A stretch of DNA of 64,000 bases from an uncultured Pelagibacteraceae bacterium (GCA_902579105.1 CACHFM010000003.1:21622-85621), one strand, 5' to 3'. Counted from the first letter of the stretch, positions 1 to 17,911 are shown. Translations and numbers: made by a program. Notes: generated from the sequence alone by a model not told the origin.

Positions 1-268
1 CTGCTTTAGATAATATTTTTTCAAAAATTTTTTTGTCATCTTTATTTTTTAAATTTAATGCAATACTTTCTTTTCCTCTATTTAGTGACATGAAATAAGC
101 AGAGTAATCATTAATAAAAGGTCCAAATTTCCTAGAGTCATCACCTGTTTCAGGAGCTTCAATTTTTATAACTCTTGCGCCTAAATCTGAAAGTATCATG
201 GTACAATAGGGGCCTACCAGAACTCTAGTTAAATCAATAACTAATAAATTTTTTAAAGGTCCATCCAT
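1..268 (-). CDS. CaiB/BaiF family (class III) CoA-transferase, 5' part only (runs off window start)
   Basis: Not in ORF track; translated by hand from ATG at 268: MDGPLKNLLVIDLTRVLVGPYCTMILSDLGARVIKIEAPETGDDSRKFGP...FMSLNRGKESIALNLK. This is the typical CoA-transferase III N-terminus. Confidence 0.9.
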   Translation of the reverse strand, partial: MDGPLKNLLVIDLTRVLVGPYCTMILSDLGARVIKIEAPETGDDSRKFGPFINDYSAYFMSLNRGKESIALNLKNKDDKKIFEKILSKA

Positions 269-277
269 AATTTTGTT

Positions 278-315
278 AAAAAAAAAGGGCTTTGTATAAA
301 TGCAAAGCCCTTTTT
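278..315 (-). terminator. Intrinsic terminator hairpin (probably bidirectional) downstream of the betaine-family binding protein gene
   Basis: GGGCTTTG-tataaatg-CAAAGCCC stem flanked by an A run on the left and a T run on the right, about 20 bp past the stop of 334..1338. Confidence 0.85.
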
Positions 316-333
316 ATAAATTATATTAGAGAA

Positions 334-1338
334 TTAATTAGGTATCCAGCTTCTCCATTTATCAGGATTAGCATCTTTCCATTCTTTAACTACTTCTTTT
401 AAATCTCTATTTTTTTGCTTAACTTCAACTAACATTACAGCCTGGTCAGCATTATCGAATTTCATTTTAGTAAAAAATTCAGCTGCTTTTGCATGTTCTG
501 CTTTTGCAAAAGTTTCAGGGTTACCATAATTGAAAGTGTAGTCTTTAGCCCAACCAGTTGCTGGCCATGCAGCTGTACCACAATCTTTCCAATTATTTGC
601 TTCTGTAAACGAGTCGCAAGTTTTATGATCAGGAAGACCTACACCAACCATGTCGTATGCTCCAAAGAACCAATGTGGCTCCCATAGATATAACAAGAAA
701 GGCTCTTTTCTTTCATATGCTGCGACTGCTTCAGCAATTGCCGCTGCTTCTGTTCCTAGTTCGTCAGCTTGGAAATCTATTCCTAAAAGATCAAGTCTTT
801 TTTGATCATGACAGTTCCAACCTGCTACAGGACAAGCAATTAATCTTCCTCTTTTTCCAGATTCTATAGTAGCAAATTTATCTTTATGTTTGTTTAAATC
901 TTTCCAAGATTTTATTCCAAGACTTTCTGCTGCGTATCTAGGAATGAAATAATCTGAAAGACCAATTATTCCAGATGTTCCCAAAAGTTTTACACTTCCA
1001 TCACCTTCGTAATTGAACATTGTTTTACCATCATATATTAGTGGACCCTTCATCATTACAGTGTCAGCTTCCGCGTAACTAGGCCAACTTTCGCAAGCAA
1101 AGTCAATTTCACCTGCAGCGATTGCTTCCCATAAACCAGTTCCTGATGGAAATACTACTCTTTTTACTTTGTATCCTAGTTCTTCTTCTAGCATACTTAC
1201 AGCAACTTGACATGTGATCTCTCCACCAGTCCAGTCAGCAACAGCAGCCGTTAACCTTTTAGCATTCGCTGTTCCAAAACTTCCAAGTATTAAGATAAAA
1301 GACAATATCAATGCTGATAATGTTTTTGATAATTTCAT
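334..1338 (-). CDS. Glycine betaine/proline-betaine family ABC substrate-binding protein (ProX/OpuAC fold)
   Basis: Signal peptide (..GTANA/K); DWTG, ESWP and YLWEPHWF motifs typical of ProX-like aromatic-cage proteins; GGGG-type RBS upstream. Confidence 0.88.
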   Translation of the reverse strand: MKLSKTLSALILSFILILGSFGTANAKRLTAAVADWTGGEITCQVAVSMLEEELGYKVKRVVFPSGTGLWEAIAAGEIDFACESWPSYAEADTVMMKGPLIYDGKTMFNYEGDGSVKLLGTSGIIGLSDYFIPRYAAESLGIKSWKDLNKHKDKFATIESGKRGRLIACPVAGWNCHDQKRLDLLGIDFQADELGTEAAAIAEAVAAYERKEPFLLYLWEPHWFFGAYDMVGVGLPDHKTCDSFTEANNWKDCGTAAWPATGWAKDYTFNYGNPETFAKAEHAKAAEFFTKMKFDNADQAVMLVEVKQKNRDLKEVVKEWKDANPDKWRSWIPN

Positions 1339-1496
1339 AGATTTTCCCCTCTATTTTTAAATTTAAAATTATATTTTAGCTCAAAAAAGTGATTAAAGTA
1401 AACTTTATAAATTTACATAAAATTCAATAATTAATTGAAATTAAGTGCGGTTAAAAGTTCCAGTTATCATTAATTCAAGCAAATTATATGCTTATT

Positions 1497-2672
1497 TTAT
1501 GGTATTTTCGGTATTGTTCTATCTAAACCTTTAGCAATTTTTTTGTCATGATCAAAGAAAGGAAGATTTACGATATCACAAGAGTGTTTATCTCCATTAA
1601 AAAGTTCAAGAATTAGTTTTTTTCCTGGCCAATCGCCTGGTTTATAAAATCTAACATAACCAATTCCTAATTTTAAAGTTGGAGAAGGAACACCAGCAGT
1701 AATATGTCCTACAATCTTATCTCCATCTAAAATCTTACTTCCAGATACTGGAGTTTCAGTTTTGCAAGTAACTCCAAATAAACAAGGTCTCCTATCTTTA
1801 TTGTTTAAAGCGTCACGACCTATAAAATCACCTTTTTCCATATTAACAAAAAACTCCAAACCAGCTTCAAAAGGTGTAATTGTTGTATCGATATCTGTTA
1901 AATTTCCAAAAATTCCTCCTTCTATTCTCCTAATAGTCATTGCTCTAGAAGCAGAAAGTTCCATTCCGTGAGGTTGTCCACAATTCATTAAATGATCCCA
2001 TAATGCTAAATGGTCAGTTTTAAATCCGTCAGAGTAGATTTCAAAACCAAGTTCATTCGTAAAACCTGTTCTTGAAACATAAAGGTTTTGTCCGCCCAAA
2101 TCAAAAAAACCAGATCTAAAATATTTCATGTTTTCATCAATTTTTCCATTAGATGCAGTTTTCATTATATCAATTGATGCAGGACCTTGTATTTGTAAAA
2201 CTCTAGATTTTGGATCAGAAATTTTGACATTATAATTTGAAGTATGCGCTAATAACCAATCTTCAAAAGGTCCATCTGCTTGAACATACCAAAATTTATT
2301 TTCACTAAATTTGAATAGAACTCCATCCATAAAAATTCCACCTTGAGGCGTGCAGGCTAAAGAATAATAACCTCTACCTTCAATAACCGAAGAAACTTTT
2401 CTTGTTAAAACTTTATCAAGAAAAGGTATTGCGTCAGGTCCAGATATTTCGATAGGTTTTTCAGGCACATCAAAGATAAGTGCTTTCTGTCTTAGTAACC
2501 AATATTTTTTAATTGGATCTTCACCAATAGACATCGGAAAGTATCTTCCAGCATAAACACCACGAACCATTTCAGGACTATGAGTTCTTTCAATATAAGG
2601 AGACTCTTCAAATCTACGTGCACTTATTTTTATAGTTTTTTTAAGATCTGATAATTCTTGAAGATTTCCCAT
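1497..2672 (-). CDS. GcvT-family THF-dependent aminomethyltransferase/demethylase, DmdA-like architecture
   Basis: SARRFEESPY N-terminus, IEISGPDA, GRGYY, RTGFTNELGFEIY, RIEGG, C-terminal GcvT barrel. Confidence 0.88.
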   Translation of the reverse strand: MGNLQELSDLKKTIKISARRFEESPYIERTHSPEMVRGVYAGRYFPMSIGEDPIKKYWLLRQKALIFDVPEKPIEISGPDAIPFLDKVLTRKVSSVIEGRGYYSLACTPQGGIFMDGVLFKFSENKFWYVQADGPFEDWLLAHTSNYNVKISDPKSRVLQIQGPASIDIMKTASNGKIDENMKYFRSGFFDLGGQNLYVSRTGFTNELGFEIYSDGFKTDHLALWDHLMNCGQPHGMELSASRAMTIRRIEGGIFGNLTDIDTTITPFEAGLEFFVNMEKGDFIGRDALNNKDRRPCLFGVTCKTETPVSGSKILDGDKIVGHITAGVPSPTLKLGIGYVRFYKPGDWPGKKLILELFNGDKHSCDIVNLPFFDHDKKIAKGLDRTIPKIP

Positions 2673-2685
2673 TTAAGTTCCTTTT

Positions 2686-5016
2686 TTAATTTAAAGAATC
2701 ATCCAACCTAATAATAACCGGTGGTTCATGTGCTGTTACTTTAGGTGGTTTATCATTATATTTTTCCATCTCTACAAGACATGAATGTGCAATTGGTCCT
2801 TGACCAAGTTTTGATGTCCCTTTATCACGTGTTAATATATTAGGATTTCCATGTTTGCAAATACTTCCATGCTCCATAGGATTTTGAGGATCGTACCATG
2901 CTCCAGTACTAATTTGAGCTACTCCCTGCATAACTTTCTTTTCAATTTTTACACCAGCTAAACAAGCACCACGATCGTTAAATAATTTTACAATATCACC
3001 GTCTTTTAAACCTCGATTTTCAGCATCAATAGGGTTTATTTCTACAGGTTCTCTATCGTTAATTTTAAAAGATTTACTATACTTTCCGTGGTCCATTTGG
3101 CTATGTAATTTATTTTTGGGTTGGTTTGATATTAAATGAATATGGAATTTTTTATTTTTTTGACCTAGCCATTCGCAAGGTTCTAGCCAAACAGGGTGGC
3201 CTGGGCAGTCATCATATCCGAATTCTGCAACTGTTTTAGAGAAAATTTCAATTTTACCGCTAGGTGTATTTAACGCATTTTTAATTGGGTCTTCTCTAAA
3301 ATCTTTAAGCATAAGTGTTGGTTCAGATGGATCTGAAATTTTAAACCATCTATCTTCTCGAAATTTTTTATAACTCGGTATTTTTATATTAGCTGCTGCA
3401 GCACGTTCGGTAGTTTCTTTATATATCCATTTTTGCCATTCTTCTTGATTTCGTCCTTCTGTAAATTTTTTCTCTACTCCCATTTTTTTTGCAATTCCTG
3501 CGAAAATTTCAAAGTCGTTCTTAGCTTTTCCATAAGGTTCAACTAATTTATCCATTGATACAACATACGGATCACGTGGTGTCATCATAATATCATATCT
3601 TTCAAGGGGTGTTGTACAGGGTAATACAATATCAGATCTTTTAGCAAGAGTGTTCCAACACCATTCATTCGAAATAATTGTATCTGGTTTTTCCCATGCT
3701 TTTACTAGACGATTTATATCTTGATGATGATGAAATGGATTTCCACCTGCCCAATAAACTATTTTAGTATTTGGATATTCATAACTTTTTCCATCAAAAT
3801 CAAAACTTTGGCCTGGATATAATAACAGGTCACTAATTCTTGCTACAGGAATAAAGTTATCTATTTCATTTTTAGTTTGAGGAAAAGCTGCACCGGGTAA
3901 AACTGTAAATTGACCTCCAATATAATTTGTTGCACTATAACCAAAACCAAATCCTCCGCCAGGAAGACCTATTTGTCCTACCATTGACGCTAACATTATT
4001 GCCATCCAAAATGGTTGTTCGCCATGATCTTGTCGAGTTAAAGACCAACTTACAGATATCATAGTTGTTTTAGTAGAAATTTTTCGAGCAAGCTCTTTAA
4101 TTTTTGATGAAGGAATATTACATATTTCAGCTGCCCACTCTGCATTTTTTACAATACCATCATTAGTTCCTAACAGATAAGGTAAAAATTTTTCAAACCC
4201 TTCTGTATATTTTTCTAAAAACTTTTTATCACTTAATCCTTCAGAATGAAGTGTATAAGCTAATCCAAGCATTAGCGCTGTATCAGTATTTGGTCTTGCT
4301 TTTATCCATTCACCTTTTGCCCCATCTATAAGATCAGATTTTAAAGGACTTATATTAATGAATTCTATTCCAGATTTAGCTGCATCAAGAATATTTTCTT
4401 TTTGATAATGATGTCCAGTTCCACCTTGAGATATCTGACCATTTTTAATTGGTATTCCACCAAAACAAATAAATAATTCTGTATTTTTCTTTATTAAATC
4501 CCAACTTGTACATGTATCAAGATAGGCTCGATAACTTCCTAGTATGTGTGGAACCATTGCCTCGGCTGCTGCAAAACTATAAGTAAACTTTGATCGAGTA
4601 TATCCTCCTATACAATTTAAAAATCTATGAAGTTGACTTTGTGCATGATGAAATCTACCCGCACTTGCCCAACCATATGAGCCACCAAATATAGAAGCAT
4701 TACCATAAGTATTTTTTACTCTGTTCAATTCATCTGCTACAAGTTTCTCTGCTTTTTCCCAGCTAACCTCAACAAATTGATCACTACCACGAAGCTCATT
4801 GTGGCTTCCTGGTCCATTTTCCAACCAACTTTTTCTTATCATTGGTGCATCGATACGAGTTGGTCCATCCTGAACATCTAAAATACCAGGACCAATTGGT
4901 GATGGGTCTTTGTCAAATTCCCAACCTATAAGTTCTTCAACCTTTCCATTTTTTACTTTTGCTCTATATGTACCCCAATGACTGCTAGTTAATGGCAGAC
5001 CTTTATCTTTGGTCAT
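2686..5016 (-). CDS. bisC: Molybdopterin (bis-MGD) S-/N-oxide reductase, BisC/DMSO reductase family, cytoplasmic
   Basis: SSHWG, RGSDQFVEVSW, GGSYGWASAGRFHHAQSQL, YSFAAAE (Mo-ligand Ser), GGNPFHHHQD, HSQMD, GNPNILT; no Tat leader. Confidence 0.88.
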   Translation of the reverse strand: MTKDKGLPLTSSHWGTYRAKVKNGKVEELIGWEFDKDPSPIGPGILDVQDGPTRIDAPMIRKSWLENGPGSHNELRGSDQFVEVSWEKAEKLVADELNRVKNTYGNASIFGGSYGWASAGRFHHAQSQLHRFLNCIGGYTRSKFTYSFAAAEAMVPHILGSYRAYLDTCTSWDLIKKNTELFICFGGIPIKNGQISQGGTGHHYQKENILDAAKSGIEFINISPLKSDLIDGAKGEWIKARPNTDTALMLGLAYTLHSEGLSDKKFLEKYTEGFEKFLPYLLGTNDGIVKNAEWAAEICNIPSSKIKELARKISTKTTMISVSWSLTRQDHGEQPFWMAIMLASMVGQIGLPGGGFGFGYSATNYIGGQFTVLPGAAFPQTKNEIDNFIPVARISDLLLYPGQSFDFDGKSYEYPNTKIVYWAGGNPFHHHQDINRLVKAWEKPDTIISNEWCWNTLAKRSDIVLPCTTPLERYDIMMTPRDPYVVSMDKLVEPYGKAKNDFEIFAGIAKKMGVEKKFTEGRNQEEWQKWIYKETTERAAAANIKIPSYKKFREDRWFKISDPSEPTLMLKDFREDPIKNALNTPSGKIEIFSKTVAEFGYDDCPGHPVWLEPCEWLGQKNKKFHIHLISNQPKNKLHSQMDHGKYSKSFKINDREPVEINPIDAENRGLKDGDIVKLFNDRGACLAGVKIEKKVMQGVAQISTGAWYDPQNPMEHGSICKHGNPNILTRDKGTSKLGQGPIAHSCLVEMEKYNDKPPKVTAHEPPVIIRLDDSLN

Positions 5017-5017
5017 A

Positions 5018-7141
5018 TTAATTTTTTTCTAAACCTAGTGCTATTCTCTGTTTTTTTGTCCAAGCAAGACTAATTCTATCGATTATTATAGCTAGAAGAA
5101 CTATACCAATACCTGCCGCCAATCCTCTTCCCGTATCAGATCTTGCCAATCCATTAAAAACTTCAAGACCTAGACCTTTACCACCGATTAAAGGGGTAAC
5201 AATTTGCATTGCAAAAGCCATGATAACAGTTTGATTAAAACCTATTACTAAACTTGGAATAGCTAAAGGAAATTTAACTTTATTTAATGTTTGTAGCAAA
5301 GTTCCTCCAAAAGATCTTGATACTTCAGAATAACTTCCAGAAACTTGGGTTAAACCTAAAGAGGTTAATCTAATAATAGGTGGAATAGAATAGATAACAG
5401 TTGCCAATACAGCAGAAACAATACCACCGCCAAAAAACATTAAAACTGGAATTAGATAACAGAAATAAGGAAGTGTTTGCATTGCATCTAAAACAACGTT
5501 CTGAATATTTCTAAATCTTTCATTGTATGAAGCTATTATTCCTAAAGGAACTCCCAAGGCAAAACATAAAAAGACAGAAACTAAAACAGATGAAAGCGTA
5601 ATCATTGACTGAGACCAAATCCCGCACGCACCAATAAAAAGTAAAAGCAAAGCAGTGATAAATGCAAATCTTAAACCAACTGTAAAATAACCAATAGCAA
5701 CGAATATAGCCATCGTAAACCACCATGGTATATGAGTTAAAAATACATCAAGTGGATGTAATAAGTTTAAATAAACGAATGCTCTTAATCCCTTTGTAAA
5801 ACCTATAAATCCTGGGTGAACAGTTAAAGCTTTTACTGCATCAGCTATAGGCTGTCTTATTGATAATTTCCAATCTGATGGGAAGGTACCAATTTCGTAA
5901 ATGCTAGAATTTATAAATGATATTAGAAATAAAACTATTAAAGATGGTATTACGTAATATCTTTTTGATATGAATTCTCCAATCTCGATTGCATTATTTT
6001 TACTAAATAAAGATATTAATAATTCAGATACATAAGCAATTAAATTTGTAATTTTTATACAAACGAAATCGATAATAGAACTTCCAAAACTTAATGGTTT
6101 TTCGATTATTCTTGCAATTTGATATTTTTCCCAATTTTGAGGCAATAAATAAAATTTTTGAACATCAGAAGGAAGCGGATCAACTTGTTTACTAAAAGAC
6201 ATGCTAAATCTATCAAACATGATGGCCATAAATAAAATACATAAACCACCTTCCATTGCCCATCCAACGTCCAAGTTTCTAATCGCTAACCATACTTGAC
6301 CACCAATTCCTTCAGCACCTATAAAACAAGCCAAAACAACTAGTGCTAAAGCCATCATTATTACTTGGTTAATACCCATCATAATACTAGGAAGAGACAT
6401 TGGAAGTTTTATTTTAAATAAAAGTTGCAATCTGCTCGAACCAAATGAAGTCGCAGACTCAACTGTTTCCTTTGATACTTGTCTTATTCCAGTATTGGTT
6501 AATCTTATAATCGGAGGCATAGCATAAATCATAGTTGCTAATATTGCTGGCGCTCCTCCAATTCCAAAAAAGAATAATGCAGGAAATAAATAAACGAAGG
6601 CAGGCATTACCTGCATTGTATCTAAAACAGGTTTCATGAAATTATCAAATCTGTCACTTTGAGAACAAAGTATTCCTAATGTTGTACCAAACAAAACACA
6701 CAGTAAAACTGATAGCCCCATTAAAGCAACTGTTTGCAGTGACTCGTCCCACATACCGGTTGCTCCCCAAAAATAAACTACAAATAAAGAATATAAACCT
6801 AATTTTAAACCACCCGATATTAAACAAGGAAGAAAAAAAAGTGCTGCCACTAAAAGCCATGGAGCTTCAAGAAAAAAATCTTCAAGAAAATAGTACCCCT
6901 CTTTTATATAGCTTGCTATAATTTTTGTAATCCATCTGTAATTTTTTTTTAGATAATCTTCGCCCTCATTCACCCATGCCGTAAATTTAAATTCATCAGT
7001 TACAACTTTTGGGAATTTAGATGGACCTTCACTTTGAGTAGAAAGCACCAAAGCAACTATAAAAACTAATAAAATGACTCCATATGTTATTATGTTTTTT
7101 GATTGATTTGTTTTGCTTACAGTTTCTACAAGATTAGACAT
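5018..7141 (-). CDS. Betaine-family ABC permease with two fused ProW-like domains
   Basis: Two copies of the LDxMQxxPxFxYLxP and EAA-like (ESATSFG / EVSRSFG) segments; many TM helices. Confidence 0.92.
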   Translation of the reverse strand: MSNLVETVSKTNQSKNIITYGVILLVFIVALVLSTQSEGPSKFPKVVTDEFKFTAWVNEGEDYLKKNYRWITKIIASYIKEGYYFLEDFFLEAPWLLVAALFFLPCLISGGLKLGLYSLFVVYFWGATGMWDESLQTVALMGLSVLLCVLFGTTLGILCSQSDRFDNFMKPVLDTMQVMPAFVYLFPALFFFGIGGAPAILATMIYAMPPIIRLTNTGIRQVSKETVESATSFGSSRLQLLFKIKLPMSLPSIMMGINQVIMMALALVVLACFIGAEGIGGQVWLAIRNLDVGWAMEGGLCILFMAIMFDRFSMSFSKQVDPLPSDVQKFYLLPQNWEKYQIARIIEKPLSFGSSIIDFVCIKITNLIAYVSELLISLFSKNNAIEIGEFISKRYYVIPSLIVLFLISFINSSIYEIGTFPSDWKLSIRQPIADAVKALTVHPGFIGFTKGLRAFVYLNLLHPLDVFLTHIPWWFTMAIFVAIGYFTVGLRFAFITALLLLFIGACGIWSQSMITLSSVLVSVFLCFALGVPLGIIASYNERFRNIQNVVLDAMQTLPYFCYLIPVLMFFGGGIVSAVLATVIYSIPPIIRLTSLGLTQVSGSYSEVSRSFGGTLLQTLNKVKFPLAIPSLVIGFNQTVIMAFAMQIVTPLIGGKGLGLEVFNGLARSDTGRGLAAGIGIVLLAIIIDRISLAWTKKQRIALGLEKN

Positions 7142-7223
7142 TATAAATTAACAAATTAGAATAAAATATTTTACTTTTAAAGAAAAATATTGTCTATTTT
7201 AATTCTTAAACAATGAAAAATTA

Positions 7224-8270
7224 ATGAGTAACAATCAAAAAATAACCTGTTCAAATATATGGAAGCTTTTTGGCTCTGATGAAAAAAGAGTAATGAAAGA
7301 TTTAGACGAGAGTCTTTCTATTAAAGAGGTTCAAGAAAAAACAGGACATGTAGTTGCTGTAAAGAATGTTAGCTTTTCTATAGAAGAAGGCGAGACGTTT
7401 GTAGTTATGGGTTTATCAGGAAGTGGTAAATCTACATTAGTAAGGTGTATCTCAAGATTGATTGAACCAACTTCTGGAACTGTAAAAATGGATGATGAGG
7501 ATGTTACTAAAATGAGTAATAAACAATTATTAGATCTAAGAAGAAACAAAATGAGTATGGTCTTCCAACATTTTGGTTTATTTCCTCACAGAACTGTCAT
7601 TGAAAACATTGCTTATGGCTTAGAGGTTAGAGGAAATAAAAAAATAGAAAGAATTGAAAAATCTATGGAAGTTTTAAAAATGGTTGGACTAGATGGTTGG
7701 CAGAATAATTATCCAAGAGAATTATCGGGTGGTATGCAACAAAGAGTTGGTTTAGCAAGAGCGCTAGCTGTTGATCCTGAAATTTTAATATTTGACGAAC
7801 CATTTTCAGCTCTTGACCCTTTGATTAGAAGAGAAATGCAAGATGAACTTTTAAAAATTCAAGAGAAATTAAAAAAAACTATGGTTTTTATTACTCATGA
7901 TTTTCTAGAGGCAATTAAAATGGCTGATCATATTGCGATAATGAAAGATGGAGAAGTTTCTCAAGTTGGAACACCAGAAGAAATTGTAGCAAATCCTAAA
8001 GATCAATATGTAAAAGATTTTTGTGAAGACGTTCCAAAATATAAAGTTTTAAGTGCCGCAAAAGTAATGAGAAAAGAATGCTGTTCTGATACTAAAGAAT
8101 TTTATAAAACTAAAACAAATTGTATTTTAGACAATTCTAAAATTGAAACATTAATCGATAAACTTGTTGATAGCGACAAAGCTTTTCCAGTTGTATGTAG
8201 CGACACAGGAGAACTACTTGGAGAAATAGATCGAGCTATTGTTATGAATTCAATGAAGTCAGCTAGTTAA
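7224..8270 (+). CDS. Betaine-family ABC ATP-binding protein (ProV/OpuAA-like)
   Basis: Walker A GLSGSGKS, signature LSGGMQQRVG, FDEPFSALDP, FITHD; degenerate CBS tail. Confidence 0.95.
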   Translation: MSNNQKITCSNIWKLFGSDEKRVMKDLDESLSIKEVQEKTGHVVAVKNVSFSIEEGETFVVMGLSGSGKSTLVRCISRLIEPTSGTVKMDDEDVTKMSNKQLLDLRRNKMSMVFQHFGLFPHRTVIENIAYGLEVRGNKKIERIEKSMEVLKMVGLDGWQNNYPRELSGGMQQRVGLARALAVDPEILIFDEPFSALDPLIRREMQDELLKIQEKLKKTMVFITHDFLEAIKMADHIAIMKDGEVSQVGTPEEIVANPKDQYVKDFCEDVPKYKVLSAAKVMRKECCSDTKEFYKTKTNCILDNSKIETLIDKLVDSDKAFPVVCSDTGELLGEIDRAIVMNSMKSAS

Positions 8271-9195
8271 TTTCTCTACTTACATTTATTGATTTTTGTT
8301 TAACTGAGTCTCGCCAGATAATTATCATCCCTGCAAAAACAATTACTAATACTCCAGGAAAAAGTTGTGACCATGGCGCTTCTTTAAAAAATAACCAGCC
8401 AAGAATAAAAGATGATGGAATACCAAAGTATTCAAATGAAGCCATCTTACTTGCCGAAATTAATCGATATGAATAAATAAAAAGTATTGCAGCGGTTCCA
8501 CCAAGAATTCCTGTTAGTGTCATTAATAAAAAGTCTTGAACACTTTTAATTTCAACATGTCCTGATGTTACAAAGTATAAAAAAATTCCTCCTAAAACAT
8601 TAAAGATCAAAGTATATAATTGAATTTTAGCTGTCGAGTGGCCTTCTGGAATGTATTTAAGAATGATGACGGAAAATGACCATGCAATAGCAGTTAGAAT
8701 TGGAAATATAGAATAAAAATTAAAAATTTCACTTGTTGGTTTCATAATTAGAACAACTCCAAAGAAACCAATGAATATTGCAGACCACCTGTAAATTCCA
8801 ACTTTATCCTTTAAAAAAATTATAGACAAAATAACTATAAAAAAAGGAGAAGAAAAAGTTAATGTCATTGCTGTTGCAAATTCAAGATTTATAACCGAGA
8901 TGAATATAAAAATATTCATAGCTAAAAAACATAAGCCTCGAAAAAAACTTAAAAAAACAAATTTATTATTAAGATTTTTAAATACTGATAAATATTCTTT
9001 AGTAAACAATATCAGTACAAACAAAGGAATTATTCCTGCGACATTTCTGAAAACAGCGAGCTGAAAAACTGTATATTCATTTCCAAGAAATTTAATAACA
9101 ACCATATATAAATCAACGCAAAGAATAGCCATTAGCATTGTAGCTATTGCAAGATAAGTTTTTTTAATATCAACTATTTCTGATGAATTATTCAT
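8263..9195 (-). CDS. EamA/DMT family transporter
   Basis: About 10 TM helices, two EamA repeats, LKDKVGIYRW motif. Confidence 0.85.
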   Translation of the reverse strand: MNNSSEIVDIKKTYLAIATMLMAILCVDLYMVVIKFLGNEYTVFQLAVFRNVAGIIPLFVLILFTKEYLSVFKNLNNKFVFLSFFRGLCFLAMNIFIFISVINLEFATAMTLTFSSPFFIVILSIIFLKDKVGIYRWSAIFIGFFGVVLIMKPTSEIFNFYSIFPILTAIAWSFSVIILKYIPEGHSTAKIQLYTLIFNVLGGIFLYFVTSGHVEIKSVQDFLLMTLTGILGGTAAILFIYSYRLISASKMASFEYFGIPSSFILGWLFFKEAPWSQLFPGVLVIVFAGMIIIWRDSVKQKSINVSREIN

Positions 9196-9234: not shown

Positions 9235-10425
9235 ATGCAAAATTTTAAACTAAATGAATCAGATATCTTATCCAATCAAGATTGGACGTTTCCGACTAAT
9301 ATTGCATACGGTCCAGGTAGATTGAAAGAAATAGGTGGTATCTGTAATAATTTAGATATTAAAAACCCTTTAATTGTTACAGATAAAGGCAGCACAAAAT
9401 TACCATTTATAATTAATTTACAAAATTATTTAAAAAGTTCTGATGTAAAATCCGATTTATTTTTTGATATATCTCCAAATCCAAGAGAAGATGAGGTTTC
9501 AAATGGTGTTAGTAAATTTAAAGATGGAAACCATGATGCTATAATTGCAATCGGTGGAGGCAGTGCCATGGATGGAGGAAAATTAATTTGCCTCACAGCA
9601 AACAATGACGTTCCATTAAGAGATTTTGAGTTTGAATTAACTCCGCCTAAAATTAGCAAGGATAACCCATTCCCAAAAATTATAACTATTCCAACAACTG
9701 CTGGAACTGGAGCTGAAACAGAAATTTCAGCTATGGTTACTTATTTAAAAGAAGGCATGAAATTTTGTATGTGGCATCCAGATGTTAGACCTTCTTTAGC
9801 ATTGTTAGACCCAGAACTTACAATTGGGCTGCCAGCAAATTTAACAGCCTGGACTGGAGCAGATGCTTTAATTCATGGTATAGAGGGTTATTGTGTTCCT
9901 GGGTTTAATCCTATGTGTGATGGTGCTGCATTAGAAGGATTATCATTAATTTCAAAATCTTTGGTCACAGCTGTTGAAGATCCTAGCAATATAGTTGCGA
10001 GAGGTGGAATGCATGTTGGATCTTGCTTAGCAGGAATTTCTTTTTTAAAAGGTTTGGGATTAGTCCATGCAATTGCTCATATGGTTGGGGCCGAATATAA
10101 TACCCATCACGGTTTAACTAATGCAATTATACTACCAGTTGTTTTAAAATATAATTTACCGGGTATGGAAGAAAAAGTTAAAAGAATGTCTGAAGCTATG
10201 CAATTCGAGGATCATTCTGTAGATGCATTTATTTCAAATATTGAAAAACTTCTTGATAGAATTAAAATTCCAAAGAGCCTAAGTGAGATTGGTATACCCG
10301 AAGATTGTGCAGATAGAATTGCTGAAAAATCAATGAAAGATCAAGCCTATGCACAAAATCCTAGAAAAGCAACTTTAGAAGAAATAAAGGAAATTACCCT
10401 AGCGTCAATTAAAAAAGCTAGATAA
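9235..10425 (+). CDS. Iron-containing alcohol dehydrogenase
   Basis: GGGSAMD, IPTTAGTGAE, DALIHGIE, GLVHAIAH, HHGLTNA metal ligands. Confidence 0.93.
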   Translation: MQNFKLNESDILSNQDWTFPTNIAYGPGRLKEIGGICNNLDIKNPLIVTDKGSTKLPFIINLQNYLKSSDVKSDLFFDISPNPREDEVSNGVSKFKDGNHDAIIAIGGGSAMDGGKLICLTANNDVPLRDFEFELTPPKISKDNPFPKIITIPTTAGTGAETEISAMVTYLKEGMKFCMWHPDVRPSLALLDPELTIGLPANLTAWTGADALIHGIEGYCVPGFNPMCDGAALEGLSLISKSLVTAVEDPSNIVARGGMHVGSCLAGISFLKGLGLVHAIAHMVGAEYNTHHGLTNAIILPVVLKYNLPGMEEKVKRMSEAMQFEDHSVDAFISNIEKLLDRIKIPKSLSEIGIPEDCADRIAEKSMKDQAYAQNPRKATLEEIKEITLASIKKAR

Positions 10426-10437
10426 GAGTTATTTTTA

Positions 10438-11856
10438 ATGTTTGAAAATAAATCAGTAAAAGAAATTATTTCTTTAATTCATAAAAAAGAAGTTTCTGTA
10501 AAAGAAGTTGTTAGTTTTTATTTAGAAAGAATAAAAAAATTTAATCCATCTTTGAATGCTATCGTATCGATTAAAGATGAAGAAGAAATAATAAAAGAAG
10601 CCAAAGATAAAGATGAAAACTTCGATAAAAGTAAACCTTTATTTGGTTTACCATTAGCATCAAAAGATTTATTAGATGTTGTTGGCTTTCCAACTACTTA
10701 TGGTTTTCCAGGATACAAAAATTATTTTCCAGAAAAAAATTCTTTAATTGTAGATCGTCAAGTTAATTCAGGGGCAATTATAATCGGTAAAACAAATACA
10801 GCAGAGCTTGGTGTTGGAGCACATACAGCAAATAGGCTTTTTGGAATTACACCAAATATATATGGTAATTCTAAATCATCAGGTGGATCTAGCGGTGGAG
10901 CAGCTGTTGCTGTTGCTGCTAATTTATTACCCTTTGCAGATGGAACAGATATGATGGGATCTTGTCGTACCCCAGCAGCTTTTGCTAATATTTATGGATT
11001 TAGACCCACACCGGGACTTATTCCTGATTATAGGCCAGATAATAAAAAAAAAAATATTCCAATTATTTCAACACCTGGTTGTTTAGCAAGAACGCCTGAT
11101 GATATGTCTATACTTGTAGACGAGATAGTTGGTAAACATAACTCAGATCCTATTTCTTTTAGCTTATCTAATTCTTTTAAAGAAACTAAAATTAATGATG
11201 AGGCTCTTTCAAATATAAAAATTGGATGGTTATCAGATATGAATGGTAATTATCTATATGAACCTGAAATTTTAGAAATATGTAATAAAAAACTAATAAG
11301 TCTTGAAAAAAATAAAATTAAAATTGAAAATTTAAAACCAAAAATTGATGTATTAAAATTATGGAATTGCTGGACAACTATAAGAGCAAAAAGTATTTAT
11401 GAAGATGTTGTTGATATGAATATTAAAGATATAAATGAAATGACTTCCCAAGCAATATGGGAATATAAAAAAGGTATTAAAATTAAAGAGGATCATATTC
11501 AGTCAGAATTAAATTCTAGAATTGAATTATCGAATGACTTGAATAAAGTTTTTGATAATTATGATTTCTTAGCTTTACCTTCTCAGCAAACTTTTCCTTT
11601 TGATAAAAATCTAAAATATCCAGAAAAAATTAATAATTTTGAAATGGATACTTATCATAGATGGATAGAAGTACATATTTTAGCAAGTCTTTTTTATTTA
11701 CCTTCAATATCTATTCCTGTTGGATTTAACAAAAACGGCTTTCCAATTGGAATTCAAATTATAGGAAAACAAAAAGAGGATTTAAAATTGTTTTCTTTTG
11801 CAAAAAAATATGAAGAAATATATGAATATTCTAAAAAAAAACCTTTATTAAATTAA
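10438..11856 (+). CDS. Amidase signature family enzyme
   Basis: LASKD (catalytic Lys), GGSSGGAA, GTDMMGSCR (Ser-cisSer-Lys triad). Confidence 0.92.
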   Translation: MFENKSVKEIISLIHKKEVSVKEVVSFYLERIKKFNPSLNAIVSIKDEEEIIKEAKDKDENFDKSKPLFGLPLASKDLLDVVGFPTTYGFPGYKNYFPEKNSLIVDRQVNSGAIIIGKTNTAELGVGAHTANRLFGITPNIYGNSKSSGGSSGGAAVAVAANLLPFADGTDMMGSCRTPAAFANIYGFRPTPGLIPDYRPDNKKKNIPIISTPGCLARTPDDMSILVDEIVGKHNSDPISFSLSNSFKETKINDEALSNIKIGWLSDMNGNYLYEPEILEICNKKLISLEKNKIKIENLKPKIDVLKLWNCWTTIRAKSIYEDVVDMNIKDINEMTSQAIWEYKKGIKIKEDHIQSELNSRIELSNDLNKVFDNYDFLALPSQQTFPFDKNLKYPEKINNFEMDTYHRWIEVHILASLFYLPSISIPVGFNKNGFPIGIQIIGKQKEDLKLFSFAKKYEEIYEYSKKKPLLN

Positions 11857-12749
11857 TGAATAGACACCCTCATCATTTTAAAATTGCTTTTGCCTTAGCA
11901 ATCTCAGCGGGAGCTTGGGGAATTTACTGGTTACCTCAAAGAATACTCGAAGAAGGAGGCCTTACAGGAGGTTGGGGAACAATTGCGCAAATGATAATTG
12001 GAGTATTAATTCTATCTCCAATTTCTATTTGGAGAAAATTTAAAGGCAGGTCATCAGGACTTGAATTACCTTTTACAGGATTATTAATTGGAGGAGGATT
12101 TATTTGCTATGCATTAAGCTTTCTTTTAACTGATGTTGTGCGTGCATTGATACTTTTTTATATGACACCAATTTGGACGACAATATTTGAAATTTTGTTT
12201 CTAAAAAAAAGACCAGGTCTAGAACGGTTATTAACTTTACTTTTAGCTCTCGGTGGTTTGTGGATAGTTTTTAGCAAACAAACTTTTTTTCCATTACCTG
12301 AAAATTCAGGTGACTGGTTAGCACTTGCTGGAGGAGCAATATTTGCAGGAGGAATGATACGTCTTGAAGTAATTAAAACTGATGGTGTATTCCCTTTAAT
12401 TTTTTCATTCTTTGTTTACGGAACTATATTTAATATTTTAGCAGGCTATATGTTATCAGAATACCTTGGCCCAATGCCAGCATTTGAAGCATTTATTTCG
12501 ATGTCTTCATTTTTATTTATAATTTCAGTTTTCTACTTTATCCCTACCGGGATAGTTATTCTTTGGTCTCCAAGCCAACTTGGAGCTGGTTTATGTTCAA
12601 TACTTTTTCTTTCGGAAATAATTGTTGGAGTTATAAGTTCAAGTATACTTACTGAAGAACCATTTGGTTGGCGAGAAGTTGTAGGGAGCTCTATGATTGT
12701 AATTGGTGGAATTTTAGCAGTTATTTTAGCTCCTAACAAAAAAAACTAA
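11856..12749 (+). CDS. EamA/DMT family transporter
   Basis: Hydrophobic 10-TM pattern; LFYMTPIWT and LFLSEIIVG motifs. Confidence 0.85.
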   Translation: MNRHPHHFKIAFALAISAGAWGIYWLPQRILEEGGLTGGWGTIAQMIIGVLILSPISIWRKFKGRSSGLELPFTGLLIGGGFICYALSFLLTDVVRALILFYMTPIWTTIFEILFLKKRPGLERLLTLLLALGGLWIVFSKQTFFPLPENSGDWLALAGGAIFAGGMIRLEVIKTDGVFPLIFSFFVYGTIFNILAGYMLSEYLGPMPAFEAFISMSSFLFIISVFYFIPTGIVILWSPSQLGAGLCSILFLSEIIVGVISSSILTEEPFGWREVVGSSMIVIGGILAVILAPNKKN

Positions 12750-12770: not shown

Positions 12771-13934
12771 TCAAAATTCATAATTCACTATTTCATCCAT
12801 CATATTAATCATTGCTTTTTTATAATTTTCGTCAGTTCCAGAAGGAGTGTCTATTACTGAAAAATATGATGCAGTAATTCCAGTTTTTAAATTTATTGCT
12901 AAAAACTGTCCACCTAATCCAGAGTGTCCAATCCAATCATTCAATTTCATTGTTGAATTTGAATAATATAAAAATTTATTTTTAGACAACTCCATATACT
13001 TTGTTCCTTTATTTTTTAAAGTTTGATTAAAGAATTCAGATGATCCAACTTTCCTATTACCAACCCCAAAACCTTTTCGAGAAAATAGAAGTCCATATCG
13101 TAAAAAATCTCTAGAAATTAAACATGCACCTCCCGAGATCCAAGGCATACCGAATCTATCTGTTCCCATGTATAAAGCATCTTCAAAACCAGCAGCTTCA
13201 ACAACATCAAGCACCCAGTCTTTTAATTTTTTTTTACTAACTTTTTCAATTAAAAGACCTAAGACATCAGTATTTGCTGATTTATAATGGGAAAATTCAG
13301 TTTTATTATTTAAATCTTTATTTTTATTAGACTTAATTTTATTTAAAAATTCTTCTTGTCCAATTTTTTCATTTAAATCTTTTGGTAATCTCCAACCACA
13401 TACAGGTTCATGCATATATGATGAAGTATAAGGATCAGTATAATCCTCACTATATGCATTTTCGATATTCATGTCTAAAACATCTTGGATTGTAGCTTTA
13501 GCATATCCGGTTCCAATATTTGGTAAATATTTTGATATTTTGTGATTAAGTTTTATAATTTTTTTTTTGACAAGTTCTCCAATAAATAAATTTACAAACA
13601 TTTTAGTAATCGACATTATTGTTTGTGGAGTTTTATTAGTAAAGTCACTTGCATATTTTTCATAGAGAATATCTTGATCTTTTCCAACTAATAAAGAACA
13701 AAAATATTTATGATTAATAATTTTTTTTACAGAAGGAATATTTTGAATTTTTTTATTATATTTTTTATTTAATTTTAAAACTAAATCTGATCTATATAAT
13801 AGACCATATCTGTTTATTTTATGTAAATTTCTATATCCTGCTCTACGAGTTTCGGGCAAATACCATTTTGGTTTATTATTTCTTACCACAACTAGACTTG
13901 AATTAGCTTCACTTTTAAGCTTGTATTTGTTCAT
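12771..13934 (-). CDS. Serine hydrolase, beta-lactamase class C / NylB-like (6-aminohexanoate-dimer hydrolase-like)
   Basis: SxxK (MSITK), YKSANTD, GHSGLGGQF motifs; no signal peptide. Confidence 0.8.
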   Translation of the reverse strand: MNKYKLKSEANSSLVVVRNNKPKWYLPETRRAGYRNLHKINRYGLLYRSDLVLKLNKKYNKKIQNIPSVKKIINHKYFCSLLVGKDQDILYEKYASDFTNKTPQTIMSITKMFVNLFIGELVKKKIIKLNHKISKYLPNIGTGYAKATIQDVLDMNIENAYSEDYTDPYTSSYMHEPVCGWRLPKDLNEKIGQEEFLNKIKSNKNKDLNNKTEFSHYKSANTDVLGLLIEKVSKKKLKDWVLDVVEAAGFEDALYMGTDRFGMPWISGGACLISRDFLRYGLLFSRKGFGVGNRKVGSSEFFNQTLKNKGTKYMELSKNKFLYYSNSTMKLNDWIGHSGLGGQFLAINLKTGITASYFSVIDTPSGTDENYKKAMINMMDEIVNYEF

Positions 13935-13951
13935 AAATTTTAATCATTATT

Positions 13952-14869
13952 TTATTTTTTTAATACAGATATTGCTTTTATTTCCTCAACTCCTAGTCCA
14001 CAGCATCCACCAATAATCTGAACTCCATTTTTTAACCAGGATTTAGCATATTCTAAATAATCATTAGGAGTAATGTTGTCCGCAAATTTCCAATGCGGTT
14101 TTTCATAGTATCCTGTGTTTGGATATGCGCCCAATATTCCATTAAAGTTTTTTTTTGCAATATCTATAGCTTTTCCTGTAACACCAATATCACTGTGTGC
14201 AATTAAAATAGGACCTTTATGTAGTTTGCTAAATCTATTTAAAGATTTTTCAAAATCTTCATAAACTTCAGGTGGAGAGTCTATAGTATCATTATAACCA
14301 AGCATTACATTGTTAGTTTCATTATCGATTACACACGATATTGAAAGCCAAATAGGAATATTTATTTTATATGAACATTCTATCATTGTTTGAACAATGT
14401 CAGCTTGTGATGACATTGCTTCTAAAATAATTAAATCGACTCCTTCTTCTGTTAAAATTTTTATTTGTTCTTTAAAACCTGGAATCATTGCTTTAGTTCC
14501 AAATTTATAAAAACTCCCAGAAGCCGATACGCTTCCAGCCAAAGCAATATCTTTTTTTGAGTTTTCAATTGCTTTCTTAGCTACCTCGACACTTTTTTGG
14601 TTGAATTCTTGAATTGAGTCTTCTAATCCATAATTTTTCATTGAAATAGGAGTACAAGCATAAGTGTTTGTAGTAATTACGTCAGCTCCAGCTTTAATAT
14701 AGTCCTCATGAACTTTTGTAACTAATTCTGGGAATTCAACAGAGCATGTGCCACACCATAAATTTTTGTCCATTTTAGCTCCATTTTTTTCAAGCTCTGA
14801 TCCCATCGCTCCATCTAAAATTACTAATTTACCATTATTTAATTTTTCTTTGATAAATTTGTAGGACAT
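13952..14869 (-). CDS. Homocysteine S-methyltransferase family protein (BHMT/MmuM fold)
   Basis: LDGAMGSEL, HEDYIKAGADVITTNTY, AYPNTG, IIGGCCG. Confidence 0.9.
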   Translation of the reverse strand: MSYKFIKEKLNNGKLVILDGAMGSELEKNGAKMDKNLWCGTCSVEFPELVTKVHEDYIKAGADVITTNTYACTPISMKNYGLEDSIQEFNQKSVEVAKKAIENSKKDIALAGSVSASGSFYKFGTKAMIPGFKEQIKILTEEGVDLIILEAMSSQADIVQTMIECSYKINIPIWLSISCVIDNETNNVMLGYNDTIDSPPEVYEDFEKSLNRFSKLHKGPILIAHSDIGVTGKAIDIAKKNFNGILGAYPNTGYYEKPHWKFADNITPNDYLEYAKSWLKNGVQIIGGCCGLGVEEIKAISVLKK

Positions 14870-15255: not shown

Positions 15256-15293
15256 ATTACTTCATCCAACTTTTATGTTTTATTTTATCATAT

Positions 15294-17909: not shown

Positions 17910-17911
17910 TT

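Follow-up and report, generated by a model that had tools for sequence, protein, structure and literature searches.

What does a molybdenum oxide reductase do inside the operon of an importer that resembles the one for trimethylamine N-oxide (TMAO)? The question is raised by positions 1 to 8,270 of the window, the stretch of 64,000 nucleotides from an uncultured Pelagibacteraceae bacterium that was analysed as a whole (Table 1). A preliminary description of this DNA had placed all of the named genes correctly, and had proposed that they import, reduce, demethylate and CoA-activate an oxidised methyl-onium osmolyte. Here we consider how much of that proposal holds once the individual proteins, their transcripts and their relatives in other genomes are taken into account.

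Table 1. Features of the locus and of the base locus that adjoins it
Feature	Position	Strand	Evidence or remark
Class III CoA-transferase, N-terminal 89 codons	268..1 (1..268)	minus	Truncated by window edge; Pfam CoA_transf_3, 105 bits
Intrinsic terminator of binding-protein transcript	278..315	minus	13-bp stem and U-run
Periplasmic OpuAC-type substrate-binding protein	334..1338	minus	Pfam OpuAC, 141 bits
Sigma-70-like promoter of binding-protein gene	1373..1402	minus	TTTACT, spacer, TAAAAT; promoter scan
GcvT/DmdA-fold protein, predicted THF-dependent C1 transferase (cassette gene 2)	1497..2672	minus	Pfam GCV_T and GCV_T_C
Mo-bisMGD S-/N-oxide reductase, DorA/BisC type (cassette gene 1)	2686..5016	minus	Pfam Molybdopterin_N, Molybdopterin, Molydop_binding
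Fused double ProW/TmoW-type permease	5018..7141	minus	Two BPD_transp_1 domains
Divergent promoter region, permease operon vs ATPase gene	7142..7223		Promoter scan, consensus match only
ProV/TmoV-type ABC ATPase	7224..8270	plus	TIGR01186 proV subfamily, 364.5 bits (cut-off 326.6)
EamA/DMT-family membrane transporter (base locus)	8263..9195	minus	Pfam EamA
Fe-alcohol dehydrogenase	9235..10425	plus	Operon of base locus
Amidase	10438..11856	plus	Operon of base locus
Second EamA	11856..12749	plus	Operon of base locus

The importer and its surroundings

Comparisons with protein families show that the genes at 334..8270 encode an ABC importer of the OpuAC/TmoXWV family that is paralogous to the TMAO importer TmoXWV. 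The ProV-type ATPase, ProW-type permease and OpuAC-type binding protein of a ProU/OpuA-type importer are all present; the permease matches the ProW/ChoW models with two domains, and its total score is inflated because the domain is duplicated. The two best sites of the promoter scan lie between the permease and ATPase genes, and both point outwards. TmoXWV and Tdm form the TMAO importer and TMAO demethylase of SAR11 and Roseobacter (Lidbury 2014; PMC8918994), and canonical TmoXWV, Tdm and Tmm genes lie in the same window, 45 kb away (true Tdm at 51492..53828; fused TmoW of 717 aa). Compared with this true TMAO system, identity is 23% for the binding protein, 29% for the permease and 49% for the ATPase.

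The binding protein carries a Sec-type leader that ends in ANA before K. Its best PDB match is TmoX (4XZ6, 63 bits), and all four tryptophans of the TmoX aromatic box (Trp55, Trp102, Trp177 and Trp222; residue list in PMC8918994) align with Trp. Glu131 of TmoX (Glu114 in SAR11 TmoX) contacts the N-oxide oxygen and is essential to binding, with the E114A variant of TmoX1062 not binding at all (PMC8918994). This residue, which is kept in the window's true TmoX and in the binding proteins of related clusters outside SAR11, aligns here with Ser128, adjoined by Asp129. We read the protein as a divergent paralogue of TmoX that possesses an aromatic cage, and as a candidate receptor. A characterised orthologue was sought and was not found; the match to DmpX (7YLE), the one characterised in SAR11, reaches only 27 bits, so that the protein is a different one.

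The binding-protein gene is transcribed alone, at a very high level, and is among the highly transcribed SAR11 genes. Word depth in four metatranscriptomes is 300-18,000 for this gene and 0-50 for the permease and enzyme genes. RNA depth rises 100-1000 fold at the gene's own strong promoter, which is conserved likewise upstream of the gene in SAR11 loci without the two enzymes. Past the strong terminator (-18.3 kcal/mol, z = -4.88; none of 200 shuffles folds equally well), the depth of RNA contigs drops from thousands to 0-33. Canonical tmoX/tmoVW display the same pattern, with tmoX far above the rest. The tightly packed run of genes described previously is found in part: the reductase ATG comes 1 nt past the permease stop and 13 nt separate the reductase from the GcvT-like gene, but a 158-nt spacer with the conserved promoter, and then the terminator, interrupt the run further on.

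Beyond that terminator lies the CoA-transferase gene, which had been counted as part of the unit. It is a separate transcription unit, a patchily linked neighbour rather than an operon member, since RNA depth falls before it and it is mostly not syntenic: it adjoins the binding-protein gene in some SAR11 loci only and is 0-6 kb off in others. In an Arenicellales locus (L041), a 67%-identical homologue is convergent to the GcvT-like gene. The genes on the other side belong to a conserved base locus. In SAR11, the first EamA gene is syntenic whether or not a locus has the two enzymes, and so are the Fe-alcohol dehydrogenase (Fe-ADH), amidase and second EamA genes (9235..12749). Fe-ADH, which the preliminary description had overlooked, is the enzyme most consistently linked in SAR11. 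It also recurs in clusters outside SAR11: Rhodobacterales, Halieaceae and Porticoccaceae have orthologues of 60-65% identity that immediately follow either the GcvT-like gene or that of the reductase.

A two-gene cassette and its distribution

Together, the reductase and GcvT-like genes make up a 3.5-kb accessory cassette. It separates the binding-protein gene from that of the permease, to which it is translationally abutted. The reductase scores 951 bits against bisC_fam (TIGR00509), below the curated cut-off of 1017.55, as do two relatives (941 and 914 bits). Its closest solved relative is the DMSO reductase of R. sphaeroides (700 bits), and in an ungapped alignment with 1EU1 the Mo ligand Ser147 as well as Tyr114 and Trp116 are conserved. 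The three domains, the serine ligand and the Tyr-Trp pair at the oxo site are those of the type III DMSO reductase family. The protein begins at residue 8 of mature DorA, and a search of its N-terminus (MTKDKGLPLTSSHWG) for a twin-arginine leader found no RR motif. It is thus best described as a predicted cytoplasmic, leaderless DorA/BisC-type enzyme whose S/N-oxide active site is intact. With the catalytic residues of DorA kept and no export signal, deoxygenation in the cytoplasm, as first proposed, is plausible. SAR11 can make the bis-MGD cofactor, with mobA, moeA and a formate dehydrogenase present (PMC3160333).

Both Pfam domains of the second cassette protein score above the gathering thresholds (GCV_T 146.3 bits, GCV_T_C 36.3 bits), and it falls below every NCBIfam cut-off, with 154.9 bits vs 410 for the DmdA equivalog PRK12486 and 184 vs 1100 for its best match, the C-terminal domain of TMAO demethylase. 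Solved structures of DmdA, GcvT and Tdm score 117, 116 and 104 bits, respectively. Identity to the Tdm C-domain of the same window is 31%; only this region of Tdm matches, and DUF1989, the N-terminal metal domain of Tdm, was sought in the protein and is absent. The DMSP-contacting Trp of DmdA (W171 of the PeerJ alignment, W197 of 3TFH; PMC7487153) aligns with Phe204, which is Trp in some subfamily members, and the Asp of the GcvT catalytic region is conserved as D116. About a dozen full-length representatives of 50%-identity clusters are related at >=35% identity (that is, at least 35%), and genomes hold 588 relatives. The protein belongs to a new, uncharacterised GcvT/DmdA-fold subfamily: the earlier label "DmdA-like" is apt for the family but not for DmdA itself, to which the protein is no nearer than to GcvT or the Tdm C-domain. 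Its sequence is compatible with 5-methyl-THF as the product, as for DmdA, or with the 5,10-methylene-THF that DmmD and the C-domain of Tdm make by capturing formaldehyde.

On SAR11 metagenome contigs, ~37% of loci have the cassette and ~63% lack it. The pair lies between the permease and binding-protein genes in 19 loci (and 7 partial ones), while these two genes are adjacent in 33 (and 11 partial ones). Each of 25 SAR11-type species genomes has the reductase gene immediately upstream of its GcvT-like partner, as do at least 13 genomes from other orders. This arrangement is not due to chance, and in SAR11 the two genes have been gained or lost jointly. The binding proteins are of equal identity in loci with and without the cassette. 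Being common to both, the binding protein is not dedicated to an oxide, contrary to what had been supposed.

Outside SAR11, the carriers are Rhodobacterales (including Planktomarina and Marivita), SAR116, Arenicellales, Halieaceae and Porticoccaceae, in the order SBP-ATPase-permease-(reductase)-GcvT-FeADH and within a different TmoXWV-like operon. Their transporter proteins are only 25-53% identical to those of SAR11, compared with 55-71% for the reductase, the GcvT-like protein and Fe-ADH, which points to a second, non-orthologous TmoX-like system. The co-conservation that the original proposal called for is therefore present: the reductase-GcvT pair is kept across Alpha- and Gammaproteobacteria, usually inside an onium-type ABC importer operon. 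All combinations of presence and absence of the reductase, GcvT-like and Fe-ADH genes are nevertheless found outside SAR11. In 22 of 31 evaluable non-SAR11 loci, no reductase accompanies the GcvT-like gene, and one locus (L175) has reductase and Fe-ADH without a GcvT-like gene. In two further loci (L046 and L067), the GcvT-like gene has a reductase of a different clade (46-48% identity) next to it or close by. GMC oxidoreductase and Fe-ADH genes are often found as neighbours. BetI-, BetA- and BADH-like neighbours fit a choline analogue, and we know of no natural oxide of such a compound. A methanethiol-oxidase-like (selenium-binding-protein) gene with a ferredoxin and a CoA-binding protein recurs downstream in related clusters, which is a hint of organosulfur.

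Proposed function and competing explanations

The reading that we favour, with less than even confidence, is that of an importer with an accessory cassette that widens the usable forms of methylated onium-type solutes. The importer would take up at least one such solute, most likely a sulfonium or a choline- or carnitine-like compound, and the base locus (Fe-ADH, amidase, EamA) would already handle it. The cassette would then broaden the range of chemical forms that can be used, with the reductase stripping oxygen from an S-oxide or N-oxide form, probably at the expense of NAD(P)H by analogy with cytoplasmic biotin-sulfoxide reductases. The GcvT-like enzyme would pass a methyl group from a methylated (sulfonium) form to tetrahydrofolate in the manner of DmdA. 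The two enzymes may work in parallel, leading oxidised and over-methylated forms to the same thioether or amine, or they would act in series on a sulfoxonium substrate. Since each gene is found in places without its partner, the parallel version is the better fit. In its general form, the idea of import, deoxygenation and demethylation is plausible, and no description of this gene set was found in the literature searched, as the preliminary description had also held. Transcripts of the enzymes are very low in the four metatranscriptomes, which counts against this explanation, as do the stand-alone reductase orthologues described below, a GcvT-like sequence that would suit either THF product, and the neighbours outside SAR11 that fit a choline analogue.

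A bolder extension, which we regard as possible but doubtful, is that the cassette, the TmoX-like importer and Fe-ADH (with the methanethiol-oxidase-like block outside SAR11) constitute an undescribed, widespread route that harvests sulfur and C1 units from oxidised and methylated organosulfur osmolytes. Sulfonium demethylases would then have a second family in the GcvT-like protein, and the orphan binding protein, highly expressed as it is, would be the receptor for these osmolytes; candidate substrates include sulfoxonium and sulfonium compounds such as DMSOP, DMSHB, gonyol, dimethylsulfonioacetate or S-methylmethionine, and their sulfoxides. If true, the route would serve abundant marine bacteria (SAR11, Planktomarina/RCA, SAR116 and SAR92 relatives).

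Reductase orthologues of 75-77% identity stand alone beside housekeeping genes (gyrB/dnaK/dnaJ or hisB-type), so the enzyme may serve repair or salvage in general and have nothing in particular to do with the imported solute. It would act on free methionine sulfoxide, biotin sulfoxide, DMSO or TMAO and be merely co-transcribed, with the GcvT-like enzyme alone working on an imported betaine or sulfonium. The source annotations of these orthologues (biotin/methionine sulfoxide reductase) and the occurrence of each cassette gene without the other agree with this. We nonetheless consider it rather unlikely, as the reductase gene recurs between permease and GcvT-like genes, 1-68 nt from its neighbours, in several orders and in two transporter operons that are not orthologous, the pair is jointly gained or lost in SAR11, and a second reductase clade is also associated with the GcvT-like gene.

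The GcvT-like protein could instead trap formaldehyde or an iminium released by a partner as 5,10-methylene-THF, with no demethylation of its own; candidates for that partner are a GMC oxidase, Fe-ADH working on methanol, and the Mo enzyme working on an N-oxide. An established precedent exists in DmmD, a GcvT-like protein that stands alone (PMC5520151). The NCBIfam match to the TMAO demethylase C-domain and the conserved D116 point the same way, as do the frequent GMC oxidoreductase neighbours and the nearby Fe-ADH, whose best PDB match is an NAD-dependent methanol dehydrogenase. The cluster, however, contains neither a demethylating oxygenase nor a DUF1989 domain, and the scores to DmdA, GcvT and Tdm are almost equal. 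To our knowledge, enzymes of the type III DMSO reductase family are only oxygen-atom-transfer reductases. Taken together, this explanation is unlikely.

Stand-alone reductases and the reductase locus without a GcvT-like gene also argue against the dedicated import-reduce-demethylate sequence that had been proposed, and hence against its DMSOP form, in which the Mo enzyme would reduce imported DMSOP, or another sulfoxonium, to DMSP, and the GcvT-like enzyme would demethylate this product to MMPA. The gene order, the constant co-inheritance in SAR11, the retained Tyr114, which favours S-oxides, and the methanethiol-oxidase-like gene would suit it, and for DMSOP only a lyase route is known, demethylase action being an open question (PMC10686828). 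No specific pointer to DMSOP was found, and in seawater it averages ~0.14 nM, 0.1-1% of DMSP (PMC10686828). Such a scarce substrate contrasts with a highly transcribed binding protein common to loci without the cassette; the GcvT-like protein is not DmdA, and the conserved Fe-ADH, ALDH and BetI-/BetA-like neighbours have no role in DMSP demethylation. We judge this sequence to be quite improbable.

Scavenging of DMSO sulfur would do without the transporter: DMSO would diffuse in and be reduced to DMS, from which the GcvT-like enzyme would form methanethiol for methionine or for methanethiol-oxidase-like oxidation. The nearest solved reductase with its Tyr114 and Trp116, the methanethiol-oxidase-like genes in several clusters and the Pelagibacterales DMSOR homologues already counted in metagenome surveys (PMC8520302) are in keeping with this. 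Neither the repeated placement inside importer operons nor the clusters with a GcvT-like gene and no reductase would be explained. SAR11 requires reduced sulfur, but methyl transfer from a thioether to THF is methionine synthase in reverse and thermodynamically unfavourable, and this route is very unlikely. Last, a second TMAO system that reduces TMAO to TMA is suggested by the TmoXWV paralogy and by the relation of the reductase to TorA and TorZ, yet it is hardly credible given that the window already has canonical TmoXWV, Tdm and Tmm, and given the absence from the SAR11 binding protein of the Glu whose replacement abolishes binding in TmoX1062 (PMC8918994), and a product that would work against Tmm.

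Comparison with known systems

TmoXWV-Tdm is one of the known systems that most resemble the locus. Both combine a ProV-type ATPase with a fused double permease of ~700 aa and an OpuAC-type binding protein whose cage is built from four Trp residues, and in both the transcripts of the binding-protein gene far exceed the others. A GcvT-fold THF module tied to an N-oxide or onium substrate, as is proposed for the cassette locus, is likewise part of TmoXWV-Tdm. Unlike that system, the cassette locus has no oxygen-binding Glu in the SAR11 binding protein and no DUF1989 domain, and it has a Mo reductase instead. The DMSP-specific DmpXWV and the ProU/OpuA importers also use an OpuAC-family protein with an aromatic cage for the sulfonium or ammonium head (PMC10030565).

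DmdA (PDB 3TFH), a stand-alone enzyme that uses an onium compound as methyl donor and THF as acceptor, has the same fold and length as the GcvT-like protein and is its best solved-structure match; in contrast to the DmdA context, dmdB, dmdC and dmdD are absent from the window locus. DmmD of the dimethylamine monooxygenase DmmDABC is, like the second cassette protein, a stand-alone GcvT-fold subunit beside a redox enzyme for a methylated compound (PMC5520151). Its partner is the DmmABC oxygenase, whereas that of the window protein is a Mo reductase. SAR11 lacks dmmABC, as far as we know. BisC, the biotin-sulfoxide reductase (BSOR) of Rhodobacter, DorA and TorZ are three-domain Mo-bisMGD enzymes, as is the window reductase, which shares with BisC and BSOR the lack of a Tat leader and a predicted cytoplasmic location. 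Its position inside an importer operon, beside a GcvT-fold gene, is not described for BisC, DorA or TorZ and sets this reductase apart from them.

Locus layout and transcription

Every gene named in the preliminary description was confirmed in the window, whose GC content is about 30%, by ORF listing together with Pfam and NCBIfam scans. The proteins encoded are of Candidatus Pelagibacter (SAR11) type.

Genes of the importer locus and of the methylamine/TMAO island, with other features mentioned in the text (scores in bits against the curated model cut-off)
Feature	Coordinates	Strand	Evidence
Class III CoA-transferase, first 89 codons only	268..1	-	ORF; Pfam/NCBIfam
OpuAC-type binding protein	334..1338	-	ORF; Pfam/NCBIfam
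GcvT-family protein	1497..2672	-	ORF; Pfam/NCBIfam
Mo S/N-oxide reductase	2686..5016	-	ORF; Pfam/NCBIfam
Fused double ProW-type permease	5018..7141	-	ORF; Pfam/NCBIfam
ProV-type ATPase	7224..8270	+	ORF; Pfam/NCBIfam
MmuM-like homocysteine S-methyltransferase	13952..14869		
PotA-type ABC importer	19127..23605		
ALDH	29466..30899		
GmaS	41221..42546		Type III glutamine synthetase model, 623 against 470
MgsABC	44957..48155		Pfam domains
Tdm	51492..53828		1108 against 1100
TmoX	53971..54924		282 bits to 4XZ6
TmoV	56517..57548		Pfam ABC_tran
TmoW, fused	57552..59705		Two permease domains
Tmm	62159..63490		738 against 675

The minus-strand run from the permease to the CoA-transferase is more than one transcription unit. 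The permease stop codon is separated from the reductase ATG by 1 nt, and the reductase from the GcvT-like gene by 13 nt. The binding-protein gene is preceded by a 158-nt spacer in which the promoter scan found a TTTACT/TAAAAT promoter, and which contains no known riboswitch, since neither an Rfam nor a tRNA scan of the window gave a match. Between this gene and the CoA-transferase, folding revealed a strong terminator (13-bp stem, U-run, z = -4.9) that the promoter/terminator scan passed over, probably owing to its 8-nt loop and A/U-extended stem. The arrangement is borne out by four marine metatranscriptomes. Word depth in their contigs was 300-18,000 over the binding-protein gene against 0-40 in both flanks, and the genes for permease, ATPase, reductase and GcvT-like protein had depths of 0-65; word depth is a crude measure of transcription, but the contrast is nevertheless 100-1000 fold, placing the binding-protein transcript 100-1000 times above those of its own permease and the enzymes. 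The same contrast separates the canonical tmoX (depth 2e4-3.5e5) from tmoVW in the same runs.

Elsewhere in the window, positions 12771..19081 hold genes of an osmolyte or C1 flavor, including a beta-lactamase-fold protein, a glyoxalase-fold protein, an HIBADH-like dehydrogenase, a third EamA, the MmuM-like enzyme and EutA/DoeA-like ectoine-utilization homologues, with the PotA-type importer next. GC falls to 22-24% at 36000..40000, a stretch encoding a BamB-like PQQ-repeat protein, an AFG1-like ATPase, a UPF0047 protein and two ORFs that have no Pfam match.

Reductase, GcvT-like protein and binding protein

The reductase aligns with Rhodobacter DMSO reductase at 700 bits, ungapped around the active site, and Tyr114, Trp116 and Ser147, the last of which ligates Mo, are conserved. 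It begins at residue 8 of the mature Rhodobacter enzyme and lacks a twin-arginine leader; we therefore assign it as a cytoplasmic DorA/BisC-type S/N-oxide reductase, with a score slightly under the curated bisC_fam cut-off (951 against 1017.55 bits). Metagenome surveys tally such genes merely as DMSO reductases (PMC8520302). Moco biosynthesis genes are absent from the window, and for the supply of the cofactor in SAR11 we rely on published work (PMC3160333).

The GcvT-like protein had been called a DmdA-like demethylase. Its NCBIfam score (155 against 410) rules out that it is DmdA, and it lies equally far from DmdA (117 bits), from GcvT at 116 and from the C-domain of Tdm at 104. Among the 1.84 billion cluster representatives of the library searched, roughly a dozen full-length ones are at least 35% identical to it, which marks a subfamily that is small and distinct. 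The SAR92 "DmdA_like" enzymes were rejected as members of the same family, their cluster being a different one, dmdA-acuH-dmdB-dmdC (PMC10746254). Mapping the functional residues of DmdA onto the protein did not tell methyl from methylene transfer, and the literature searched yielded nothing useful on a THF-dependent betaine demethylase. An identical protein in the collection (P0011) has only 357 aa, which implies an annotation with the start codon placed 34 codons further downstream; the 391-aa reading is favored by homologues from other orders, whose alignments begin at residue 1-3.

The binding protein carries a Sec leader. Among solved structures it is closest to TmoX (63 bits): the four tryptophans of the cage align, and the Glu that binds the TMAO oxygen in TmoX is replaced (residue role: PMC8918994). 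It was rejected as TmoX by comparison with the true TmoX of the window, and as DmpX7211 because it reaches 27 bits to DmpX where about 35% identity would be expected (PMC10030565). The HTCC1062 ProX (SAR11_0797) is ligand-less (PMC11485210); orthology to it was not established, no cultured-strain name occurring among the 214 clusters of the family. This family appears confined to SAR11-like sequences, and the 90%-identity cluster of the binding protein has 1238 members.

Distribution of the reductase-GcvT pair

A metagenome scan queried with the binding protein recovered 80 SAR11-type loci. In 33 of these and on 11 partial contigs, the binding-protein gene comes immediately after the permease gene; in 19 and in 7 partial ones, the reductase-GcvT pair lies between the two. 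The promoter of the binding-protein gene and the EamA / Fe-ADH-amidase-EamA flank are kept in both arrangements, and binding proteins of equal identity (e.g., 95%) are found with and without the pair, contradicting the earlier view of a dedicated binding protein. In SAR11, the pair is an accessory cassette. Downstream, the flank varies, being formed by the CoA-transferase in some loci and by a TauE-Dus-TRAP block or a gamma-butyrobetaine-hydroxylase/BKACE/HpcH/GMC block in others. As a neighbor, the CoA-transferase is thus inconstant, and with a terminator also in between, its proposed part in CoA activation finds no support; in L041, an Arenicellales genome, a 67%-identical copy adjoins the GcvT-like gene.

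In one subclade of SAR11-like alphaproteobacterial SAGs (loci L017-L031, L043), an SDR and BKACE, the beta-keto-acid cleavage enzyme known from carnitine breakdown, separate the GcvT-like gene from that of the binding protein, followed by a malonyl-CoA-synthase-like ligase. In loci L004-L007, the binding-protein gene is followed by what looks like a carnitine/gamma-butyrobetaine-type catabolic block: a gamma-butyrobetaine-hydroxylase-like TauD, SDR, cupredoxin, BKACE, HpcH/HpaI lyase, 4HBT thioesterase, second TauD and GMC oxidoreductase.

Scanning GTDB species genomes with an alignment of six GcvT-subfamily sequences gave 588 relatives, and 79 loci were kept. The reductase lies directly upstream of the GcvT-like gene in all 25 evaluable loci of SAR11 type and in 9 of 31 evaluable loci from other lineages with GcvT identity of at least 61%, with four further cases on short contigs or in the lower-identity group (L032, L057, L069, L070). 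Carriers outside SAR11 include Roseovarius, Marivita cryptomonadis, Paracoccaceae, Arenicellales, Halieaceae and Porticoccaceae. Their common order is SBP-ATPase-permease-(reductase)-GcvT-FeADH-ALDH-HpcH/CitE-like. The transporter proteins are no nearer to those of SAR11 than to TmoXWV (25-53% identity), whereas orthology to SAR11 holds for the reductase, the GcvT-like protein and the Fe-ADH (55-71%); the same enzymes are therefore combined with two different TmoX-like importers. Non-SAR11 binding proteins are nearer to TmoX (154 bits) and keep its TMAO-oxygen Glu.

Frequent neighbors outside SAR11 are EamA, a BetI-like TetR, a BetA-like GMC oxidoreductase and a BADH-like ALDH, the last three being paralogues under the equivalog cut-offs, with a GST or a second GcvT paralogue added in some cases. 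A 3-hydroxypropionate module (dddB/dddC-like) was dismissed, as the ALDH is BADH-like rather than MmsA-like. Also frequent is a block of SBP56 (selenium-binding/methanethiol-oxidase-like), ferredoxin and CoA-binding protein. In Rhodobacterales and SAR116 (L020, L040, L078, L080, L173-L176) it follows the cluster as HpcH/CitE-like lyase-SBP56-2Fe-2S ferredoxin-CoA_binding_2; the SBP56 scores 160 bits as MtoX against a cut-off of 650, and in L174 and L176 the block is broken by IS elements or decayed. The window itself contains no BetA-, BetI-, CitE- or SBP56-like gene, and of this set only a 50%-identical ALDH.

The reverse test took ten reductase homologues (74-81% identity to the Roseovarius enzyme) at 11 places. 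The GcvT-like gene lies directly downstream at six, and probably at a seventh cut by the contig end (L169). At one (Planktomarina temperata), the contig stops at the reductase, inside the importer operon; another (L175) reads importer-reductase-FeADH without the GcvT-like gene. At the remaining two, reductase orthologues of 75-77% identity stand alone amid housekeeping genes (hisB-like in L170; gyrB, NUDIX, radC and dnaJ/dnaK in L171). The association is thus strong but modular, and all four combinations of presence and absence of the two genes exist.

Proposed function and comparison with known systems

SAR11 and Roseobacter-group bacteria govern much of the turnover of methylated S and N osmolytes, compounds that feed climate-active gases. 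The locus combines an onium-type importer, a predicted cytoplasmic reductase with intact S/N-oxide chemistry and a predicted THF-binding GcvT-fold enzyme; the pair has the signals of co-transcription and behaves as a cassette. We propose that it would let the cell use extra chemical forms of the imported methylated solute(s), an oxide form being dealt with by deoxygenation and a sulfonium or onium form by methyl transfer to THF. The logic of import, deoxygenation and demethylation in the preliminary description, which had been tied to co-conservation of the genes elsewhere, survives that test; DMSOP as the specific substrate does not, finding no specific support and some evidence against it. 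For the two enzymes to act strictly in sequence, the substrate would have to be a sulfoxonium such as DMSOP. A parallel route, or "funnel to the thioether," agrees better with the modular presence and absence of the genes and also accommodates close reductase orthologues that work alone. Methyl transfer to THF is favorable from sulfonium donors, as in DmdA, and unfavorable from thioethers, making a DMSO-DMS-methanethiol route unlikely on chemical grounds. The kept Fe-ADH and ALDH, the SDR and BKACE genes of one SAR11 subclade, and the MR/MLE and GMC genes of Planktomarina-type loci suggest an alcohol- or hydroxy-acid-bearing solute, and a hint of sulfur comes from the methanethiol-oxidase-like block.

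Here an orphan binding protein with strong transcription is tied to two enzymes of predicted deoxygenation and folate methyl transfer, the chemistry needed to use the oxidized pool (DMSO, DMSOP, sulfoxides, N-oxides), for which we know of no described cytoplasmic route of this kind. Since only about one SAR11 locus in three carries the cassette, its natural presence or absence is a clean marker of niche partitioning, and the existence of cultured carriers (Marivita cryptomonadis CL-SK44, Roseovarius sp. E0-M6, and for the reductase within its importer operon an assembly of Planktomarina temperata) opens the question to direct testing. If the reductase does no more than BisC-type repair, what would remain is a new GcvT-family demethylase for a betaine or a sulfonium, useful still but ordinary.

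Each part of the locus comes from a known family (the ProU/TmoXWV importers, the type III DMSO reductases, the GcvT/DmdA fold); importer, reductase and GcvT-like gene in combination were not found in the literature searched. The same window carries a complete canonical SAR11 methylamine/TMAO island (41221..63490), which besides the genes tabulated includes an AmtB-like transporter, a second GS-like gene, a DAO-type oxidoreductase and two small ORFs, one of which has MORN repeats. The GcvT-like protein shares 31% identity with the C-domain of the Tdm encoded there. The importer described here is only a distant paralogue of the TmoXWV of this island, with identities of 23% (SBP), 29% (permease) and 49% (ATPase), and TMAO is therefore unlikely to be its main substrate.
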